Source: a phage
Strand: one strand, 5' to 3'
Sequence record: PZ256263.1
Length of the DNA stretch: 64,000 nucleotides
Under the pieces are notes generated by a model that made no database searches, had not been told where the DNA came from, and saw only the letters and a program-made list of their open reading frames with translations. Position 1 is the first letter of the stretch, and each line of letters opens with the position of its first letter. The translations under genes were made by a program, and so were the position numbers. Positions 21,001-29,577 of this stretch are shown here, one piece after another.

Positions 21001-21734
21001 GTCGTCGTCAATCACGGAAAGAATCACGGAAAGACCTTCGTCGGGAAGCACTTGTCACTCGTAAGGGTAAGCGAGAGTTTGAAGAGGTGGTTTTAGCAAA
21101 GCCTGTAGTCCCTCAGAACCAGTTTCAGTCTGAGCTACTCAATGCTATTAAGACTAAACAAGTTGTGTTCACAGACGCTCCTGCGGGCTGTGGTAAGACC
21201 TTTGTAATCACTTCCACAGTTATTGATGCACTGAAGAGTGGTAAGATTCAGAAGATCATTCTGAGTCGTCCTTCAGTTGGTATGGGCAATTCTCTTGGGT
21301 TGCTTCCGGGAGGGATGCGTGAGAAGTTTGAACCTTACCTGATGCCTATCATTGATGTTATTACTCAGCGATATGGTAAGGGGTTCTATGAATGCCAGCT
21401 CGGTAACAGTAACATTGAGTTCGTACCTCTGGAATATCTCCGTGGTCGTTCTTTCAATGATGCTATTGTTATTGTTGATGAGTTCCAGAACACAACTAAA
21501 GATGAAGCCTTCTCAATCATGACTCGATTGGGAGAAACCTCTCAGCTGTTCTGCATGGGTGATACTAACCAGCATGATATGCGTGGTCGTGAGAGTGGTC
21601 TTACTTGGGCTACTAACTTTATTGATGAACATGATCTGTATGAGTTCGCTGAGATTGTAGACGGAGAATCAGATGACATTGTTCGTTCTGGTTTTTGTAA
21701 GGCGATTGTTAAAGCAATGGAAAAGAAAGCTTAA
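20997..21734 (+). CDS. phoH: PhoH-like ATPase
   Basis: Track ORF 245 aa; Walker A DAPAGCGKTF, Walker B IVIVDEFQN. Confidence 0.75.
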   Translation: MSRRQSRKESRKDLRREALVTRKGKREFEEVVLAKPVVPQNQFQSELLNAIKTKQVVFTDAPAGCGKTFVITSTVIDALKSGKIQKIILSRPSVGMGNSLGLLPGGMREKFEPYLMPIIDVITQRYGKGFYECQLGNSNIEFVPLEYLRGRSFNDAIVIVDEFQNTTKDEAFSIMTRLGETSQLFCMGDTNQHDMRGRESGLTWATNFIDEHDLYEFAEIVDGESDDIVRSGFCKAIVKAMEKKA

Positions 21735-21745
21735 ATAGTAACTTA

Positions 21746-21754
21746 TAATGTATA
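21746..21754 (+). promoter_or_regulatory. TAATGTATA motif, candidate phage-sigma-dependent promoter
   Basis: Exact TAATGTATA 12 nt after phoH stop, about 24 nt upstream of AAGGAG and the ATG at 21791; a second degenerate copy TAATGTACA follows. Confidence 0.5.
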
Positions 21755-21790
21755 CTCCTTAATGTACACTGATATATTAAGGAGTTTTAA

Positions 21791-22105
21791 ATGGCAGACC
21801 ATGTAGGAAAGAGAGATTATGCACAAGAAAGACGTACCGCAATTGCCCGTGGTGAGACAGGCGTTGGGAGCAAGAGCGGAGATGCTCAGCGCCACCGTGC
21901 ACGTCGCATCGTTGAAAAGCGCGATGGAAAAGCTGCTGTCAGAGGTAAAGATGTTGGACACAAACGAGCTGTCAAGTCTGGAGGCTCTAATGCGTCAAGC
22001 AACTTACGTGTTGAATCAGTCAGCTCAAACCGTTCAAACGGCGGCAAAAGTGGTGATCGAGCTGGAAAAGCAGCTGGAGCACGCAAAGGAGCTTTAAGCT
22101 CATAA
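21791..22105 (+). CDS. basic Gly/Arg/Lys/Ser-rich low-complexity protein
   Basis: Track ORF 104 aa with strong SD AAGGAG; first codon positions G-rich and third positions A/T-rich, favouring this frame over the overlapping ORF 21819-22097. Confidence 0.45.
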   Translation: MADHVGKRDYAQERRTAIARGETGVGSKSGDAQRHRARRIVEKRDGKAAVRGKDVGHKRAVKSGGSNASSNLRVESVSSNRSNGGKSGDRAGKAAGARKGALSS

Positions 22106-22115
22106 AGAGGTTATA

Positions 22116-22409
22116 GTGTCAGCAGAAACAAAAAGATGTACAATTCACACTTATTGTAAATTCTGTAAAGCAGAGGGTGTAAAAAGAGTTGCAACTTTAA
22201 TGACCAAGTATTCTCCAAGTAGAGGATACAGGGACCACTATAAGCACTACTCTTGTAGTGATCACTCCCATCTATTAGAAGATACAGACCCGAATAGAAC
22301 AAGGAGAGAGCATAACATCGATCTGAGAGCTACTCTCAAGGAAATGAAAAATAACTCTCGGAACAACCATTACACTGAAGCTGACTATCAAACTTGGCTT
22401 CGTCTCTAG
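22116..22409 (+). CDS. Cys/His-rich putative zinc-binding protein
   Basis: Track ORF 97 aa (GTG start, AAGAGG upstream); CTIHTYCKFCK ... HYSCSDHSH. Confidence 0.5.
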   Translation: MSAETKRCTIHTYCKFCKAEGVKRVATLMTKYSPSRGYRDHYKHYSCSDHSHLLEDTDPNRTRREHNIDLRATLKEMKNNSRNNHYTEADYQTWLRL

Positions 22410-22413
22410 AACA

Positions 22414-22446
22414 AAGGCTGCCTAATCAGGTGGCCTTTTCTTTTTT
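22414..22446 (+). terminator. rho-independent terminator
   Basis: 9-bp stem aaggctgcc/ggtggcctt with 6-nt loop followed by tttcttttttat, immediately after ORF 22116-22409. Confidence 0.65.
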
Positions 22447-22478
22447 ATAAACCAAATTAAACTTCTTAGGTAATAAAT

Positions 22479-22733
22479 ATGTCTATTGTAAAAATCGTAA
22501 ATATCATTGATGTAACTCGTACCGGTAAGACTATCAGTTGGAAATTCACCAATAAGCATAGAGGTTCAGAGAACATCATTCGTTATATGATTCAACAAAA
22601 CCCAAATACAGCTCGCACTAACGTACTCCTTCGAGGAGCTGATGGAAAATTTATTTCTTATAAGAATAAGAACGTAGAAAAATCTTTCCGTGTTGCAGTA
22701 GAAAACCTCATCCCATTCCCTAAAGGAGTTTAA
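22479..22733 (+). CDS. small protein, tandem paralog family C (1 of 2)
   Basis: Track ORF 84 aa; TARTNVLLRGADGKFISYKNKN...ENLIPFPKG. Confidence 0.55.
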   Translation: MSIVKIVNIIDVTRTGKTISWKFTNKHRGSENIIRYMIQQNPNTARTNVLLRGADGKFISYKNKNVEKSFRVAVENLIPFPKGV

Positions 22734-22734
22734 T

Positions 22735-23019
22735 ATGAATAAGTTAGCTATGGTTCAGATTCGAGACACATACCCTAATCGCCCAGAACAGAAACCACGT
22801 ACTTGGTCTTACCTACTAGCTGAGAGTAAGACTATTGACAACTTCTCTGTAGGGATTGATACTATCCCGACCAGTATCACTTTGCTTCCTCACAAAACAG
22901 CCAGAACTCATGTGATGTTACGAGACAGCAAAGGTAAATTTATCTCTTATCGTGATTCACGAATCAATAATGAGATTAAATCTGCTATGGAATTTTTGAT
23001 GCCATTCCCAAGAGGTTGA
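22735..23019 (+). CDS. small protein, tandem paralog family C (2 of 2)
   Basis: Track ORF 94 aa; TARTHVMLRDSKGKFISYRDSR...EFLMPFPRG. Confidence 0.55.
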   Translation: MNKLAMVQIRDTYPNRPEQKPRTWSYLLAESKTIDNFSVGIDTIPTSITLLPHKTARTHVMLRDSKGKFISYRDSRINNEIKSAMEFLMPFPRG

Positions 23020-23022
23020 GCG

Positions 23023-23181
23023 ATGAAAGAATACATTTATGTAGGACAGCGCTGGTTCGGTGATGAATGGGAAGGTGGATATAGCGTTGTGAAAGCTTTT
23101 AAGTCTGAGGAAGATGCCAAGGCATGGGTCTTAAAAGATGACGTTGGCGAGAGAACTTATATTGAAGTCGAGGTAGAGTAG
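23023..23181 (+). CDS. small hypothetical protein (52 aa)
   Basis: ATG 4 nt after upstream stop; MKEYIYVGQRWFGDEWEGGYSVVKAF...; stop 1 nt before next start. Confidence 0.35.
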   Translation: MKEYIYVGQRWFGDEWEGGYSVVKAFKSEEDAKAWVLKDDVGERTYIEVEVE

Positions 23182-23182
23182 G

Positions 23183-23605
23183 ATGCCATTACCAGCTAGA
23201 CATCAAAACCGTTTCCTAGTTCTCAAGTGGGATGATATCGAAATGAATCTCACTGAACACGAACTTGATTTGTTCCATGAACTACTGTCAGAGATTCGCT
23301 CTGGTATCCCTGATCGTCAGTATGTAGTTATCAGTGATAAGCACCCTCAAGAGTTTGAAGAAGCTTGGGGTATGAAGCTGGCTTATATTCAGAGAGCTAT
23401 TCGAGAAAGAGAAGAAGTCGCTAACCAAAGGGTTGTGGCTCATTTAGTACGAGAGCAACCTCGTGAAGCTAGGGCTAACCATGCACCACCCCCACCCCCT
23501 CCTTGGACAGTTGTCAACGGGACAGTTAGGGCTTACAGTGATGAAGCTACCATGTTAGATGTAGTAGAAGACAACCAAGCATTTACAGATTTACTTTACC
23601 AATAA
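23183..23605 (+). CDS. hypothetical protein with poly-Pro tract
   Basis: Track ORF 140 aa; HAPPPPPPWT. Confidence 0.5.
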   Translation: MPLPARHQNRFLVLKWDDIEMNLTEHELDLFHELLSEIRSGIPDRQYVVISDKHPQEFEEAWGMKLAYIQRAIREREEVANQRVVAHLVREQPREARANHAPPPPPPWTVVNGTVRAYSDEATMLDVVEDNQAFTDLLYQ

Positions 23606-23621
23606 TTTAAAGGAGTATAAA

Positions 23622-25466
23622 GTGAGCAACCCGGACGCTCTCCCATTTTTGACAGAGATGACTGTCGCTGATATAATCTCTAAGCAAGCAAAGCACGGAG
23701 TGAGTTTCAACCGAAGAAATGCTCGGTGGTATGTTCACCTCCTTAAAGAGATTATTGTTAATATTGACAAAGAACTGATTCCTCTCTTACCTAAGATGAG
23801 ATTAGATGGCTCAACTTATATGAAGCCGTTTAAGAAGTCTGGAGCTTTACAGAAGTGGCCTCAAGCCTATTGCGATAGAGTTGGCCTCAAGAGAGAAGAC
23901 ATTGGTGGAGCATTCACCTGTGTCGAGTACGTAGACTTTGACCCATCGAAAGATGCACGAGTTAAAGAAGCCCTTATGGATGAGGGTTTTCTTCCTCCAG
24001 AGTTTAACGTATCTAAAAAGCCTTGGAACACTTTCGAAATTAAGAAAGACATGCGAAAGTATGGAACATACCAAGCATGGTACACCGCTTGGATGCGAGG
24101 CAATGCTAAACAGAAACAGACAGCCGAGATGGTTGACGCTGATATTAAGAAGTTCTTAGAGAAACACTTTAGGTTCAAGACTAAGAACTACATGAAGGCT
24201 TATGTGTTTGGTTTGGGATTAAACCCTAACCGACGTAACCCTGTAACATTTGACGAGATTAAGAAAGCACTAGCTACCTCAAACAAGTGGCCTACAGCTC
24301 CTACAAACCTCGAGGAGACTCTTGAAGAAGGGTTAGGGGGTGAGCTAGGGAGTGTCGGAAGTTTGCTTAAGAGACGTGTTGTAGCGGCTCACAGGCTAGG
24401 TCTTATTAGTGGACTTATAGCAAAGGAGCGCGAAGATGGTAAACTTTCGGCAGAAGCTAACAGCTGCGCTACGCCGACTTTTCGATTCAAACATCGTATC
24501 GTGGTTAATATTCCCTCCCGTGGTTTGTTTGGTCATGAGTGTCGCAGTTTGTTTGAGTCTGACTATAACTCAGATGATGATCACTCTCGTCCTTTCGTTA
24601 TTACTAACGTTGTTCCTGATGGTTGTTATATACGAAAAGGTACTAACGTAATTTATGAAAAAGGTAAGCCGGGGAAGAAAGATAAGCCTGTAGGTGCTTA
24701 CAAATATTACATACCCGCTGGTAAAGAAGTATTCTTAGGGTATGATGGTTCTGGATTAGAGTTGCGTATGCTTGCACACTACCTCATTAAAGAGTGTAGA
24801 GATATGCTTGCTGAAGCAATAGAAGAAAACAATCCAGCTAAGAAAGCTCTGGCAGAACGTGGTTTAGCTTCTGCTATTATGTATCGTGATATTCTCCTTG
24901 AAGGTGATATCCACTCTCACAACCAGAAACTTGCTGGTCTTCCTACTCGTGACAACGCTAAGACATTTATCTACGCATTCAACTATGGTGCTGGTGATGC
25001 TAAGCTCGGTTCAATTGTAGGTGGTGGGGCTGACGAAGGTTCAGTGATGCGAGCACGTTTCTTGGCAGAGAACCCGTGTATTGCAATCCTCATTGATCGT
25101 ATGACAGAGAAAGCTGCTCAAGGATACTTGATTGGTGTTGATGGTCGTAAGATTACAATGAGACGGGATGCCACTGGTAAGGTTATGGTTCATAAAGCAC
25201 TTAACACCCTCCTGCAATGTGCTGGTGCTGTTGTTATGAAATATGCTATGATGTTCCTTAACAAGTGGATTGAGAGAGATGGGGTTCGTTGTGCTAAGGT
25301 AATTGATATGCACGATGAGGGCCAGTTCTCAGTGAACCGTAATGATGTACAGAAACTCAAAGAACACACCGAGCTTTGTGTTAAGAAGGCTGGTGAGTAT
25401 TTGAACATGGAATGTCCTCTGGCATCTGATTGTCAGATTGGACTTAACTGGATGCATACACACTAA
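23622..25466 (+). CDS. DNA polymerase, family A polymerase domain (T7 gp5-like), lacking the 3'-5' exonuclease motifs
   Basis: Track ORF 614 aa (GTG start, AGGAG upstream); motif A GYDGSGLELRMLAHY, motif B RDNAKTFIYAFNYGAGDAKLG, motif C HDEGQF, C-terminal GLNWMHTH. Confidence 0.9.
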   Translation: MSNPDALPFLTEMTVADIISKQAKHGVSFNRRNARWYVHLLKEIIVNIDKELIPLLPKMRLDGSTYMKPFKKSGALQKWPQAYCDRVGLKREDIGGAFTCVEYVDFDPSKDARVKEALMDEGFLPPEFNVSKKPWNTFEIKKDMRKYGTYQAWYTAWMRGNAKQKQTAEMVDADIKKFLEKHFRFKTKNYMKAYVFGLGLNPNRRNPVTFDEIKKALATSNKWPTAPTNLEETLEEGLGGELGSVGSLLKRRVVAAHRLGLISGLIAKEREDGKLSAEANSCATPTFRFKHRIVVNIPSRGLFGHECRSLFESDYNSDDDHSRPFVITNVVPDGCYIRKGTNVIYEKGKPGKKDKPVGAYKYYIPAGKEVFLGYDGSGLELRMLAHYLIKECRDMLAEAIEENNPAKKALAERGLASAIMYRDILLEGDIHSHNQKLAGLPTRDNAKTFIYAFNYGAGDAKLGSIVGGGADEGSVMRARFLAENPCIAILIDRMTEKAAQGYLIGVDGRKITMRRDATGKVMVHKALNTLLQCAGAVVMKYAMMFLNKWIERDGVRCAKVIDMHDEGQFSVNRNDVQKLKEHTELCVKKAGEYLNMECPLASDCQIGLNWMHTH

Positions 25467-25472
25467 AGGTGA

Positions 25473-25841
25473 GTGATGAGAGAAACCAATATCATCTACA
25501 GAACATTGAGATGTTTAGCTAAAGAGAGGGGGATGGAGGATTTCCTCCTCCAATATTATGAAATAGCTAAGACTGGAATTTATCCAAAATGGTTTAGTGA
25601 AGATCAAGGATTATGCTTCAACTTCCGCTGTTATAAGAGATATTATTATTTCACAAAGCATTTAGATATTGACGACATGAAGAATATGTTTAATCAAGAA
25701 GAGTTCTTTGACCCAACATATCCCTTCGGATGTGATCAATATTTTAGAGATAGAGACAACGGGGCACATCATAAGAATCCAAAACGACGGGCTTGGATTA
25801 AAAATACACTGAAAACTCTATATAGTATTGAGGTTGAGTGA
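25473..25841 (+). CDS. hypothetical protein
   Basis: Track ORF 122 aa. Confidence 0.5.
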   Translation: MMRETNIIYRTLRCLAKERGMEDFLLQYYEIAKTGIYPKWFSEDQGLCFNFRCYKRYYYFTKHLDIDDMKNMFNQEEFFDPTYPFGCDQYFRDRDNGAHHKNPKRRAWIKNTLKTLYSIEVE

Positions 25842-28701: not shown

Positions 28702-28710
28702 TATACATTA
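28702..28710 (-). promoter_or_regulatory. TAATGTATA motif on the minus strand, antisense orientation in a + strand noncoding region
   Basis: Plus strand reads tatacatta; no minus-strand ATG in the next 180 nt downstream. Confidence 0.35.
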
Positions 28711-28762: not shown

Positions 28763-28771
28763 TAATGTATA
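28763..28771 (+). promoter_or_regulatory. TAATGTATA motif, candidate phage-sigma-dependent promoter for the SSB-like gene
   Basis: Exact motif about 46 nt upstream of AAGGA and the ATG at 28831. Confidence 0.5.
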
Positions 28772-28830: not shown

Positions 28831-29577
28831 ATGTCTATGATTCCAACTATCGCAACTTCTTCCCGTAAATCCAACTACGACATCATCCCTGATGGTGAGT
28901 ATGAAGCACGTATTGTTCGTGTAGTAGGTTTGGGTGTTCACAATCGTGACCCTTGGGTTGACCCGAAGACCAAAGCAGTAACTCCTAAGAATCCAGCTTT
29001 CCGTATGGATTTGGCTTTCGAGCTGATTGGTGTTGATGCTACTGGTAAAGATTCCGATGGTAAGGCATTAGAACCACGTCCTGCTTGCCAGTTCAAGAGT
29101 TATGATGTAAACCCACGAGCTAAGAACTCTGGTATTCTTGATCTCTGCAAGATGATTGACCCAAGCATTCAAGCACTGAAAGGTGATCTGTCTTGGTTTA
29201 AGGATGTGCTGTTAGGTCAGCCTGTTAACATTCTGGTTAACTCTTACACTAACAAAGCTGGTGAAGTTAAAAACTCCATCAAGACCATTTCTCCAATCCC
29301 AACCAAATATCGTGCAGCAGTTGGTGAAGCTCGTAGCCCTCTGGTATTCTTCGAACCGTATGCTGAAACCGATGAGAACGTAGCATCCTATCAACTGATG
29401 TTCCCGTTCCAGCGCAACCTGCTTACTCAAGCTAATGACGCTAAGAACATGCCTCTGGCTGGTCGTGAAATTACTCGTGCTTCTGAAACAGAGCAGAAAG
29501 AAGCTACCCCTTCAATCCCTACGATTGATAAAGAGCCTGCTTCTACTTACGAAGACGACAACGATAGCCCATTCTAA
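28831..29577 (+). CDS. single-stranded DNA-binding protein-like
   Basis: Track ORF 248 aa; acidic C-terminal tail ending YEDDNDSPF (terminal aromatic as in SSB/T7 gp2.5 tails); own promoter motif and terminator. Confidence 0.5.
   Translation: MSMIPTIATSSRKSNYDIIPDGEYEARIVRVVGLGVHNRDPWVDPKTKAVTPKNPAFRMDLAFELIGVDATGKDSDGKALEPRPACQFKSYDVNPRAKNSGILDLCKMIDPSIQALKGDLSWFKDVLLGQPVNILVNSYTNKAGEVKNSIKTISPIPTKYRAAVGEARSPLVFFEPYAETDENVASYQLMFPFQRNLLTQANDAKNMPLAGREITRASETEQKEATPSIPTIDKEPASTYEDDNDSPF

Follow-up and report, generated by a model that had tools for sequence, protein, structure and literature searches.

Two small open reading frames lie side by side just after a terminator in the stretch shown above, and the locus raises the questions of whether they are copies of one gene, whether they form a transcription unit of their own, and what their products do for the phage. 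The window, that is, the whole 64-kb stretch that was analyzed, comes from a Kuravirus (a phiEco32-like E. coli phage); it is ∼95% identical to kuraviruses, including SkaterBoy_Bas90, over 4 kb, and its gene order matches those of phiEco32, SU10-like phages, and WFI101126 gene by gene.

An ancient tandem duplication in a family confined to one phage group

The original prediction named the two frames a tandem paralog pair, to be checked by alignment and by their distribution in related phages. The coordinates it gave are exact, and the motifs that it quoted are present:

22479..22733, + strand: paralog A (copy 1), 84 aa, pI 10.6
22608..22727, + strand: conserved core of A, codons 44 to 83, with TARTNVLLRGADGKFISY, helix 2, and the PFPKG tail
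22735..23019, + strand: paralog B (copy 2), 94 aa, pI 10.0, with its conserved core at 22897-23016

The two genes, both on the + strand, are separated by 1 nt. A carries TARTNVLLRGADGKFISY...PFPKGV and B carries TARTHVMLRDSKGKFISY...PFPRG, and alignment by BLASTP found significant similarity over a 40-residue C-terminal core (20/40 residues identical [50%], 30/40 positive, 0 gaps, E = 2e-14). When either protein was searched against the window by tblastn, the other copy was recovered at E = 4e-11 to 7e-11, and no third copy was found in the 64 kb (nothing else scored better than E = 0.4). The phrog_6814 profile HMM matches A at E = 3.9e-38 (residues 1-84 on profile positions 1-86) and B at E = 7.9e-37 (residues 1-94 on positions 1-85). 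AlphaFold (AF2) models of both proteins, with pLDDT values of 88 for A and 83 for B, are small and compact and have a beta-beta-alpha-beta-alpha topology in common, the secondary-structure order being strand, strand, helix, strand(s), and helix in each. Since both copies match the profile end to end and have the same fold order, their homology is full-length and not just C-terminal. At the DNA level, A and B can be aligned over one 18-nt stretch only, which indicates that the duplication is old. We conclude that A and B are anciently diverged tandem copies of one single-domain protein family.

A is the ortholog of phiEco32 gene 57 (phi32_57) and of SU10_054, and B is that of phiEco32 gene 56 (phi32_56) and of SU10_053. 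A protein of phage SR02 is 100% identical to A; phi32_57 is ∼64% identical to A, and phi32_56 is ∼94% identical to B. The orthologs are annotated as "hypothetical" in 99 phage records, and our literature search found no paper naming phi32_56, phi32_57, SU10_053, SU10_054, or phrog_6814.

Of 50,697 phage records, 99 contain the family, and these are Escherichia or Shigella phages in every case. All 30 of 30 diverse relatives match phrog_6814, with no other family matched consistently. An exhaustive profile search of 1.84 billion (1.84e9) protein representatives returned 29 matches, 27 of them true members, which are single-domain proteins of 79-103 aa; PHROG 6814 itself is annotated as of unknown function. 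Two large candidate members were rejected as spurious because they match the short hairpin motif only, repeatedly: P0112, through its repeat TEVFARGxDGKLIH, and the kinesin-like P0113, through GKEFISYRDSK. A degenerate DNA pattern detected 15 metagenome stretches, among which the long contigs are kuravirus-sized (68-90 kb), and gave 0 matches in 185,579 species genomes searched for cellular or prophage homologs. PHROG 6814 is confined to lytic podophages of the Gordonclarkvirinae type, and at each locus examined it lies between the gene-58 module and the DNA polymerase gene; the order of gene 58, hairpin, family gene(s), gene 54-like gene, and DNA polymerase gene is kept in three genera and also in divergent contigs long enough to show it. 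Each phage has one or two copies, with at least one in every relative examined, and phages without B are also without gene 55.

Searches beyond the family returned little. There was no match to A or B in Pfam at E ≤ 1 except noise and none in NCBIfam; among the antiphage defense profiles of PADLOC, the only match was to AbiEi (E = 0.031, 12 bits), which is noise; and the best hit of a PDB sequence-profile search (E = 0.06) was to a GH18 fragment. The A and B models have no significant fold relative in the PDB by Foldseek (best E values of 0.13 and 0.79), and ribosomal proteins, blasticidin deaminase, Dmd, protein L, and monobodies were rejected as fold relatives for their low Foldseek probability. 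No AbrB/MazE swapped-hairpin or other known small DNA-binding fold was found with Pfam, the PDB profile search, or Foldseek. In BFVD, the A model matched only predicted structures of family members (TM 0.77-0.79) and, weakly, small uncharacterized phage proteins. By sequence and by fold, PHROG 6814 is without a relative of known function; it is an ordinary orphan family with a modestly interesting evolution.

The terminator and the middle operon

In the original prediction, the pair lay directly downstream of a terminator and formed its own short unit. As with the paralogy, the terminator upstream is borne out; the separate two-gene unit is not. The features that bear on this are as follows:

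21746..21768, + strand: equivalent of the middle promoter P58, a gp36-holoenzyme element in the position before gene 58
21791..22105, + strand: gene 58 homolog, 104 aa, basic and G/S/R-rich, first gene of the P58 operon
22116..22409, + strand: accessory gene of the SU10_055 type, 97 aa, lying after gene 58 and before the terminator
22413..22448, + strand: intrinsic-terminator structure; GC-rich stem of 11 pairs, loop of 4 nt, U-tract UUUUCUUUUUU
23023-23181, + strand: gene 55, a tightly packed downstream cistron of the same array
23183-23605, + strand: gene 54, likewise tightly packed downstream in the same array
23622-25466, + strand: gene for a family A DNA polymerase, gp53, a downstream cistron; the polymerase is exonuclease-less

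The 11-pair stem (5 GC pairs) spans 22413-22438 and is followed by TCTTTTTTAT. It folds with a dG of -15.7 kcal/mol (z = -3.6), which none of 200 shuffled sequences equaled. All 18 of 18 related loci have the hairpin and its U-tract ahead of the first gene of the family; the hairpin sequence is constant within Kuravirus and differs across lineages. In a stem alignment of 15 sequences, every one of the 134 cells is paired (100%), 6 of the 9 pairs show compensatory changes, and the covariation score is 0.42 versus 0.23 in shuffles (0/500 as high) and ≤0.12 with the partners slid. The hairpin is annotated as a terminator in NC_070991, and Rfam gave only subthreshold Phe_leader matches, which reflect the terminator hairpin. 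Judged from its folding and covariation, the element before A is a genuine, evolutionarily conserved intrinsic-terminator structure, apparently inside an operon.

On the promoter side of the hairpin, gene 58 is the conserved upstream neighbor of the family. An overlapping gene in its +1 frame was considered and rejected; that frame is open in 11 of 12 loci, broken in the remaining one (L032), and far less conserved than frame 0, and its openness is probably a by-product of low hydrophobic-codon content. In other phages, an HNH endonuclease gene lies upstream of the hairpin, either downstream of gene 58 (Bas89) or ahead of it (Bas86). The SU10_055-type accessory gene is absent from phiEco32, and gp55 of SU10 has been called unique (PMC4281155).

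The gp36-dependent promoters of phiEco32 have the consensus tAATGTAtA and were mapped only before genes 6, 13, 26, 40, 58, and 68 (PMC8948821). In the window, P58 is the only promoter signal found upstream of the pair, with an exact element, TAATGTATA, at 21746-21754 and a near-copy, TAATGTACA, at 21760-21768. On the + strand of 21700-25500, the AATGTA core occurs only at 21747 and 21761, both in P58, and the next exact TAATGTATA on this strand is at 28763.

Could A and B nevertheless be an independent transcription unit, started from an unrecognized promoter just after the terminator? A canonical terminator usually marks the end of a unit, and within Kuravirus the spacer that follows the hairpin, TATAAACCAAATTAAACTTCTTAGGTAATAAAT, is well conserved. 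Yet the 30 nt that separate the U-tract from the ATG of A contain no sigma70-like site (22440-22480) and no match to TAATGTATA with ≤1 mismatch; the nearest gp36-type match, TAATAAATA at 22471, has 2 mismatches, is without the GT core, and abuts the ATG of A. Outside that genus, in Suseptimavirus, Nieuwekanaalvirus, and still more distant relatives, the hairpin is kept, but the spacer is shorter or has another sequence, and the experimental promoter maps of phiEco32 show no promoter here (PMC8948821). Moreover, the genes after B follow closely, with gaps of 3 nt before gene 55, 1 nt before gene 54, 16 nt before the polymerase gene, and 6 nt before the gene after that, and no terminator-like site was found on the + strand in 22448-25500, which rules out a short unit. 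We consider an independent unit quite improbable. With no promoter after the terminator and gapless genes downstream, the pair instead reads as the promoter-distal continuation of a long middle operon: by their sequence signals, A and B are the first cistrons distal to the terminator within the P58 operon, and they are presumably transcribed as such.

Because no promoters were found downstream of the hairpin, we infer read-through of the terminator. Transcripts that pass the hairpin would then supply A and B during the DNA replication phase, in smaller amounts than the product of gene 58. The last codons of A, in which AAAGGAG doubles as the Shine-Dalgarno sequence of B, suggest that translation of B is coupled to that of A. 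As for what could carry RNA polymerase across the hairpin, the N terminus of gp79 occupies the RNA exit channel (PMC12276001), and one possibility is that gp79 is the antiterminator for this site; no nut-like or put-like element was identified. The conserved terminator might be a temporal gate opened by gp79-modified RNA polymerase.

Divergence within A and conservation of B

One segment of A stands apart in its rate of change:

22512..22607, + strand: hypervariable, putatively recombining N-terminal segment of A, codons 12 to 43 (beta-turn, strand 2, helix 1)

Column entropy in A is 1.48 bits in codons 12-43 versus 0.37 in the C-terminal part. Compared with phiEco32 and NJ01, the N-terminal part has a dN of 0.37-0.46, and neighboring genes have a dN of ≤0.08; within Kuravirus, its dN is 0.37-0.51 and its dN/dS is 0.45-0.78, with phoH, gp58, gp55, gp54, and pol at ≤0.12. 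Divergence of this half is >10 times faster than that of the neighboring genes. B, on the other hand, is under strong purifying selection (dN/dS, 0.05-0.07). Independently, the SU10 study found no middle gene less conserved than CDS54 (66% identity to phiEco32; PMC4281155).

The allele of A in one relative (L037) is chimeric; over 150 nt at the 5' end it looks like copy 1 of Suseptimavirus, and over 90 nt at the 3' end it is Nieuwekanaalvirus-like, as are its flanks. This structure indicates that the N-terminal half of A is swapped by recombination between genera, with the apparent exchange point at the conserved core. Since dS is also raised in the variable segment and dN/dS stays <1, the fast divergence of A could come from old alleles kept by recombination or from relaxed constraint, rather than from positive selection.

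What the proteins may do

The C-terminal half of the family is invariant (T-A-R-T-N-V..L-R...G-K-F-I-S-Y, a helix, and P-F-P), and the invariant polar residues are concentrated there. These residues, the compact models, and the absence of any catalytic-family match suggest that A and B are small noncatalytic binding modules. Our best explanation, which we hold tentatively, is that these old tandem duplicates, read through as cistrons of the P58 operon, modulate a host target during the replication phase, in takeover or counterdefense. The conserved C-terminal half would hold an invariant partner, with adjustment left to the surface formed by the N-terminal hairpin and helix. The fast N-terminal part of A, the chimeric allele, the copy number of one or two, and the divergence of CDS54 in SU10 give the family the flavor of an arms race; the strong purifying selection apparent in B speaks against that reading. 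Furthermore, every relative examined has at least one copy, always at one site in the replication module; this resembles a core gene more than it does the usual accessory gene for counterdefense, and it counts against a host target.

The same constancy would suit replisome accessory factors. A and B might be subfunctionalized adaptors, e.g., processivity or recruitment factors, whose C-terminal half binds the family A DNA polymerase or the gene 54 protein. The family is always one to three genes upstream of the polymerase gene in the same packed array, no lineage member examined is without a copy, the core motif is as extremely conserved as expected with a conserved phage partner, and the joint absence of B and gene 55 hints at a functional module. 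Position does not discriminate between the readings, however, because T7-like phages also intersperse small host-directed genes (gp2, gp5.5, gp5.7, and gp5.9) among their replication genes. In Bruynoghevirus, the gene-58 homolog adjoins the DNA polymerase gene with no phrog_6814 member nearby, and a hypervariable, recombining N-terminal half would be unusual for a replisome subunit. We regard a replisome role as rather unlikely, and host-target modulation as the preferred reading.

That reading has a more elaborate form, to which we give a low probability: PHROG 6814 would be a new-fold, two-part host-interaction family, found in Gordonclarkvirinae only, with an invariant effector half and a swappable N-terminal specificity half. 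The TARTNV/GKFISY/PFP half would lock onto a conserved cellular target, and the N-terminal half, diversified by tandem duplication and intergenus recombination, would track or evade variable host factors. Phages of this group have unusually broad resistance to defense systems (BASEL data, PMC11990801), to which such a family could contribute.

A role as nucleic acid-binding regulators, e.g., autoregulators that bind the RNA of the upstream hairpin, or DNA, and control read-through or translation of the distal operon, is improbable. Both A and B are strongly basic, R46, R52, K57, T, N, S, and Y are among the invariant residues, and a conserved RNA hairpin lies immediately upstream in all relatives. 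But basic charge does not run through the family: pI spans 4.6 to 10.6, and 14 of the 25 representatives are acidic or close to neutral (pI 4.6-6.9), which argues against generic nucleic acid binding. Nor do protein and hairpin change together, since the hairpin sequence varies across lineages under an invariant protein motif and is constant within Kuravirus, where the variable half of A changes; known nucleic acid-binding folds and families gave no match. Least probable of all is that A and B are partners or inhibitors of the gene-58 protein, like immunity proteins of a nuclease: gene 58 is their invariant upstream neighbor, has an HNH-like motif (DVxH...SGGSN...NLR...N; some homologs are annotated as HNH endonucleases), and A and B (∼85 aa) are similar in size to immunity proteins, but gp58 is almost invariant among kuraviruses (dN ∼0) and does not covary with the strongly variable half of A, only 99 of the 254 phage records with gp58 homologs have the family, and the terminator between the genes is the opposite of the tight coupling usual for toxin/immunity pairs.

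As it stands, the pair matters little, the genes being already deposited as hypothetical proteins in ∼100 phage genomes and gathered in one PHROG. What we add is a clearer description of an uncharacterized Gordonclarkvirinae gene present in every relative examined. The fold is compact and has no solved relative, one polar motif is invariant, one half is hypervariable and apparently exchanged by recombination, and a strongly conserved intraoperon terminator stands just upstream of the whole DNA polymerase block. Gordonclarkvirinae are of interest for phage therapy for their broad host range and resistance to defense systems. Should A and B prove host directed, they would be a new scaffold for small inhibitors, equipped by nature with a specificity cassette; a terminator under regulation would mean one more step in the transcription program of phiEco32. 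BASEL phages, e.g., SkaterBoy (Bas90), a phage that infects K-12 with restored O antigen, make both the host-target and the terminator questions experimentally tractable.

Among known systems, the T7-like class II (DNA metabolism-phase) proteins gp2, gp5.5, gp5.7, and gp5.9 act by binding a host protein and not by catalysis. Like them, A and B are small, single-domain proteins encoded among replication genes and assigned to the middle phase, which is an analogy only; unlike them, A and B belong to a family in a different phage lineage and have no sequence or fold similarity to these proteins. To our knowledge, none of these T7 genes has a tandem duplicate with a variable half that recombines. 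The best functionally suggestive fold match for the A model is the T4/RB69 antitoxin Dmd (PDB 5i8j and 5hy3), a small beta-beta-alpha-beta phage protein that neutralizes host toxins; this match falls short of significance (Foldseek E = 1.2-1.6, probability 0.10-0.23, TM 0.30-0.44), and Dmd is not among the matches listed for the B model. Dmd has no sequence similarity to A or B and no counterpart of their C-terminal helix and PFP tail. The pairs phiEco32 gp57/gp56 and SU10_054/SU10_053 correspond to A and B in family, position, and order, with no difference. Finally, the hairpin before A resembles the intraoperon terminators (attenuators) of phages, in which the same GC-rich hairpin and U-tract stand between promoter-proximal genes and promoterless distal ones.

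A tandem pair in the replication module

The phage belongs to the genus Kuravirus, subfamily Gordonclarkvirinae. The 20 best of 109 matching phiEco32-group records are 93 to 96% identical to the 4-kb stretch around the two genes under study (A and B), and the close Escherichia phages in the comparison include SkaterBoy_Bas90, MN03, FS2B, SU10, ES17, and WFI101126. Gene order is as in phiEco32, beginning with PhoH (gene 60), and a hairpin separates the SU10_055-type extra gene from A.

Genes downstream of the PhoH gene, in order
21791-22105, plus strand: gene 58 homologue, 104 aa
22116-22409, plus strand: SU10_055-type extra gene, 97 aa, Cys/His rich, GTG start
22479-22733, plus strand: A, 84 aa (phi32_57, SU10_054)
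22735-23019, plus strand: B, 94 aa (phi32_56, SU10_053)
23023-23181, plus strand: gene 55
23183-23605, plus strand: gene 54
23622-25466, plus strand: DNA polymerase gene, family A, without exonuclease domains, GTG start

The four phiEco32 and SU10 counterparts of A and B are all annotated "hypothetical protein." The original prediction described A and B as tandem paralogs; their positions, 1 nt apart, and the quoted motifs, TART.V.LR...GKFISY and PFP[KR]G, were recovered, and the alignment upheld the paralogy. The ungapped BLASTP alignment of the last 40 residues has 50% identical and 75% positive positions (E = 2e-14), and each protein retrieves the other from the whole window at ~5e-11. Since no further match in the window is better than E = 0.4, there is no third copy, and the copies number exactly two. 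Both match the profile of one phage protein family (PHROG 6814, here "the family") end to end (E = 3.9e-38 for A and 7.9e-37 for B); the homology is full length. AlphaFold2 models are confident (pLDDT 88 for A and 83 for B) and depict compact single-domain folds with a common order of strand, strand, helix, strand(s), helix, and C-terminal tail. Their DNA sequences can still be aligned over just 18 nt, which marks the duplication as ancient.

A check of related phages, as had been proposed, found the family at a fixed place across Kuravirus, Suseptimavirus, and Nieuwekanaalvirus. With the A+B profile as query, a word-indexed search across 5.8 billion proteins yielded 87 clusters, comprising A-type (81 to 85 aa) and B-type (91 to 94 aa) proteins; the long contigs on record for them are all kuravirus sized (about 68 to 80 kb). 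Exhaustive HMMER searching of 1.84 billion representatives gave 29 proteins, among which 27 are true members (79 to 103 aa) of the same architecture and two were dropped as spurious repeat matches. A degenerate nucleotide pattern built on the core motif picked out 15 metagenome stretches (the long contigs among them are kuravirus sized, 68 to 90 kb); the 185,579 species genomes had no match. In a curated phage collection, the family is present in 99 of 50,697 records, all from Escherichia or Shigella phages.

The order gene 58 homologue (104 to 122 aa), hairpin, family gene(s), gene 54-like gene, DNA polymerase gene is kept in Kuravirus, Suseptimavirus (ECBP2, Bas86), Nieuwekanaalvirus (KBNP1711, EP335, Bas89), two IMG/VR contigs (82 and 90 kb), and several Logan contigs. 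Most loci have two family copies; single copies are found in EP335, Bas89, and the related loci L037/L038, L016, and L032-L034, and a tandem pair is also present in a very divergent phage (L035/L036). In a neighbor-joining tree, indicative only because it has <100 columns, all A-type copies fall together, including the EP335 and L037 singletons, and the singletons of distant phages look B-like. Thus, we conclude that A and B are ancient tandem duplicates of a lineage-restricted gene that holds a fixed place in the replication module.

Some related loci deserve separate mention. Phages without B also lack gene 55. In Salmonella phage SeKF_80 (a 7-11-like Moazamivirus; locus L040, 4120-4389), a syntenic 89-aa ORF ending in ...LFRTNVSVRDTKTGRFVKWGNLI lies between the gene 58 homologue and the DNA polymerase gene; it matches the family core hairpin weakly (13 bits), has neither the helix nor the PFP tail, and may be a remote relative. 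On one metagenome contig (L019, 1461-1790), the B-type gene encodes 109 aa and has an aberrant C terminus, …SFNAIPKRLSDERIHLRRTALVR; the PFP tail seems to have been lost to a frameshift, which may be natural or an artifact of assembly.

Terminator and transcription

The terminator predicted directly upstream of the pair stood up to comparison. The terminator scan placed an 11-pair stem at 22413-22438, with TCTTTTTTAT after it; as RNA, the hairpin folds at -15.7 kcal/mol (z = -3.6), and the WFI101126 record annotates the same element as a terminator. We took the 85 nt 5' of the first family gene from 18 loci; at one extreme are near-identical kuraviruses and at the other contigs with proteins just 30 to 40% identical. 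In all 18, a GC-rich hairpin leads into a U-rich tract, and the stem sequence often differs. An alignment of 15 sequences shows pairing in all 134 cells (100%) of the 9-pair core; both sides have changed in six of these nine pairs, and the covariation score is 0.42 versus 0.23 for shuffled alignments (0 of 500 as high) and ≤0.12 with slid partners. This pattern in the alignment indicates that the hairpin structure is under selection. Rfam returned nothing for the hairpin beyond sub-threshold leader/terminator look-alikes.

The idea that A and B form a short unit of their own was not borne out: no promoter signal separates the terminator from A, and no boundary follows B. The spacer from the end of the U tract (~22448) to the ATG of A (22479) contains neither a sigma70-like site nor a phiEco32-type promoter element. 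The gp36 holoenzyme reads one element, tAATGTAtA (PMC8948821; see also PMC12276001), and gp36-dependent promoters of phiEco32 were mapped solely before genes 6, 13, 26, 40, 58, and 68 (PMC8948821). An exact TAATGTATA is found at 21746-21754, with a near-copy at 21760; since it lies just 5' of gene 58, we identify it as P58, the gp36-dependent middle promoter of that gene. The AATGTA core occurs nowhere else on the plus strand of 21700-25500, and the next exact plus-strand copy of TAATGTATA is at 28763. From A downstream, the intergenic gaps are 1, 3, 1, 16, and 6 nt, the Shine-Dalgarno sequence of B (AAAGGAG) is formed by the last codons of A, and the plus strand 3' of B has no terminator-like site.

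Judged by these signals, A and B lack a promoter of their own. They would come first among the promoter-distal cistrons of a long middle operon to which the DNA polymerase gene also belongs, and sequence signals and the published promoter map suggest that they are reached in the middle phase by attenuated read-through of the internal terminator from P58. Because gp79 occupies the RNA exit channel of RNA polymerase (PMC12276001), it could, as a speculative extension of this operon model, render the middle-phase enzyme resistant to termination.

Other signals were seen nearby. A perfect sigma70 consensus (23649-23677; TTGACA, 17 nt, TATAAT, upstream TG) is located within the annotated DNA polymerase ORF, 27 nt from its GTG start (23622). 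Two exact TAATGTATA copies, 28702-28710 (minus) and 28763-28771 (plus), face apart with 52 nt between them in the gap 5' of the gene at 28831 (phi32_40 homologue) and look like divergent gp36-type promoters. The SU10_055-type gene is an indel located 3' of gene 58 and 5' of the terminator, and phiEco32 lacks it; Bas89 and Bas86 instead have HNH homing-endonuclease genes beside gene 58, 5' of the hairpin. This region looks like an insertion hotspot that spares the hairpin and the start of A every time.

Constant and variable halves

Across members at ~35% mean identity, (near-)invariant residues are D11, I38, T44, A45, R46, T47, V49, L51, G56, F58, S60, Y61, A73, L77, P79, F80, and P81; N48 and R52 occur in most members, and position 57 is K or R. 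This pattern marks the C-terminal half as the constant part. Mean column entropy among A-type proteins (n = 38) is 1.48 bits for residues 1 to 43 and 0.37 for residues 44 to 84; among B-type proteins (n = 51), it is 0.52 in the N-terminal half versus 0.24 in the C-terminal half. In pairwise Nei-Gojobori comparisons of the window with phiEco32 or NJ01, the N-terminal part of A has a dN of 0.37 to 0.46 and a dN/dS of 0.45 to 0.55, and phoH, gp58, B, gp55, gp54, and pol have dN ≤0.08 and dN/dS ≤0.12. The SU10 paper independently names CDS54 the least conserved middle gene (66% identity to phiEco32). The variable segment has an elevated dS as well, and its dN/dS stays <1; the divergence may therefore reflect relaxed constraint or old alleles that recombination has maintained, and positive selection is not shown.

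Recombination is directly visible in the L037 allele, whose sequence reads as a chimera between genera. Over the first 150 nt, it matches Suseptimavirus copy 1 at 73 to 97% identity and EP335 at just 40 to 70%; over the last 90 nt, identity to EP335 rises to 93 to 97%, and both flanking genes are EP335-like (92 to 93%); the breakpoint is within the conserved TARTNV...GKFISY region. Copy A thus combines a constant C-terminal half with a variable, recombining N-terminal half.

The neighbors have peculiarities of their own. The gene 58 product (gp58) is G/S/R rich with an HNH-like motif, DV[GD]H..x5..SGGSNxxxNLRxxSxxxNRSxGGKSG, and has no Pfam match at E ≤ 1; many homologues are encoded beside a DNA polymerase gene, and some carry an HNH endonuclease annotation. 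Its dS between kuraviruses (0.03 to 0.08) is severalfold below that of its neighbors (0.13 to 0.69), which suggests nucleotide-level constraint or recent homogenization. A 92-aa ORF with a helical-looking product lies wholly within gene 58 in the +1 frame (21819-22097). Of 12 related loci, 11 keep this frame open and L032 has it broken; its conservation (36 to 96%) is well below that of frame 0 (66 to 100%), and it is probably a by-product of scarce hydrophobic codons in gene 58. In the gene 54 protein, the N-terminal region and extreme C terminus (DNQAFTDLLYQ/R) are conserved across genera, and the middle and length vary (about 113 to 140 aa among the isolates compared).

Possible functions

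Pfam, NCBIfam, and PADLOC gave no family match above noise for A or B, a PDB profile search gave noise only, and BFVD gave family members and otherwise weak matches to small uncharacterized phage proteins. Foldseek against the PDB reached E = 0.13 for A and 0.79 for B. A Dmd-like fold for A was rejected (weak matches, probability ≤0.23, and no Dmd among the matches listed for B). Generic electrostatic nucleic-acid binding was likewise rejected as a family trait because pI, 10.6 for A and 10.0 for B, ranges from 4.6 to 10.6 across members.

We infer that A and B are noncatalytic binding proteins in which the invariant polar cluster would contact an invariant partner and the N-terminal surface would be the adjustable part of the module. 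Our preferred guess, a tentative one, is a host-directed role in takeover or counter-defense, which fits the fast evolution, recombination, and copy-number change, as well as the broad defense resistance reported for Gordonclarkvirinae (PMC11990801). Nearly as likely, A and B may be replisome accessory proteins, a role favored by their constant location next to the polymerase gene and by how strongly B is conserved; an obligate polymerase partnership is somewhat disfavored by the distribution of gp58 homologues, found in 254 phage records (Bruynoghevirus, which are Pseudomonas phages, Aeromonas, Proteus, Moazamivirus, and others), only 99 of which have the family. The same counts argue against an obligate partnership with gp58, as does its near-invariance against the varying N-terminal half of A.

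We have high confidence in the descriptive parts of this analysis. The genes and their grouping were already public as uncharacterized, and an orphan tandem pair of small genes in a phage middle region is ordinary. What is new is modest but real: proteins for which Foldseek found no fold relative in the PDB, a covarying terminator inside an operon, and constant and variable halves with a documented intergeneric chimera.
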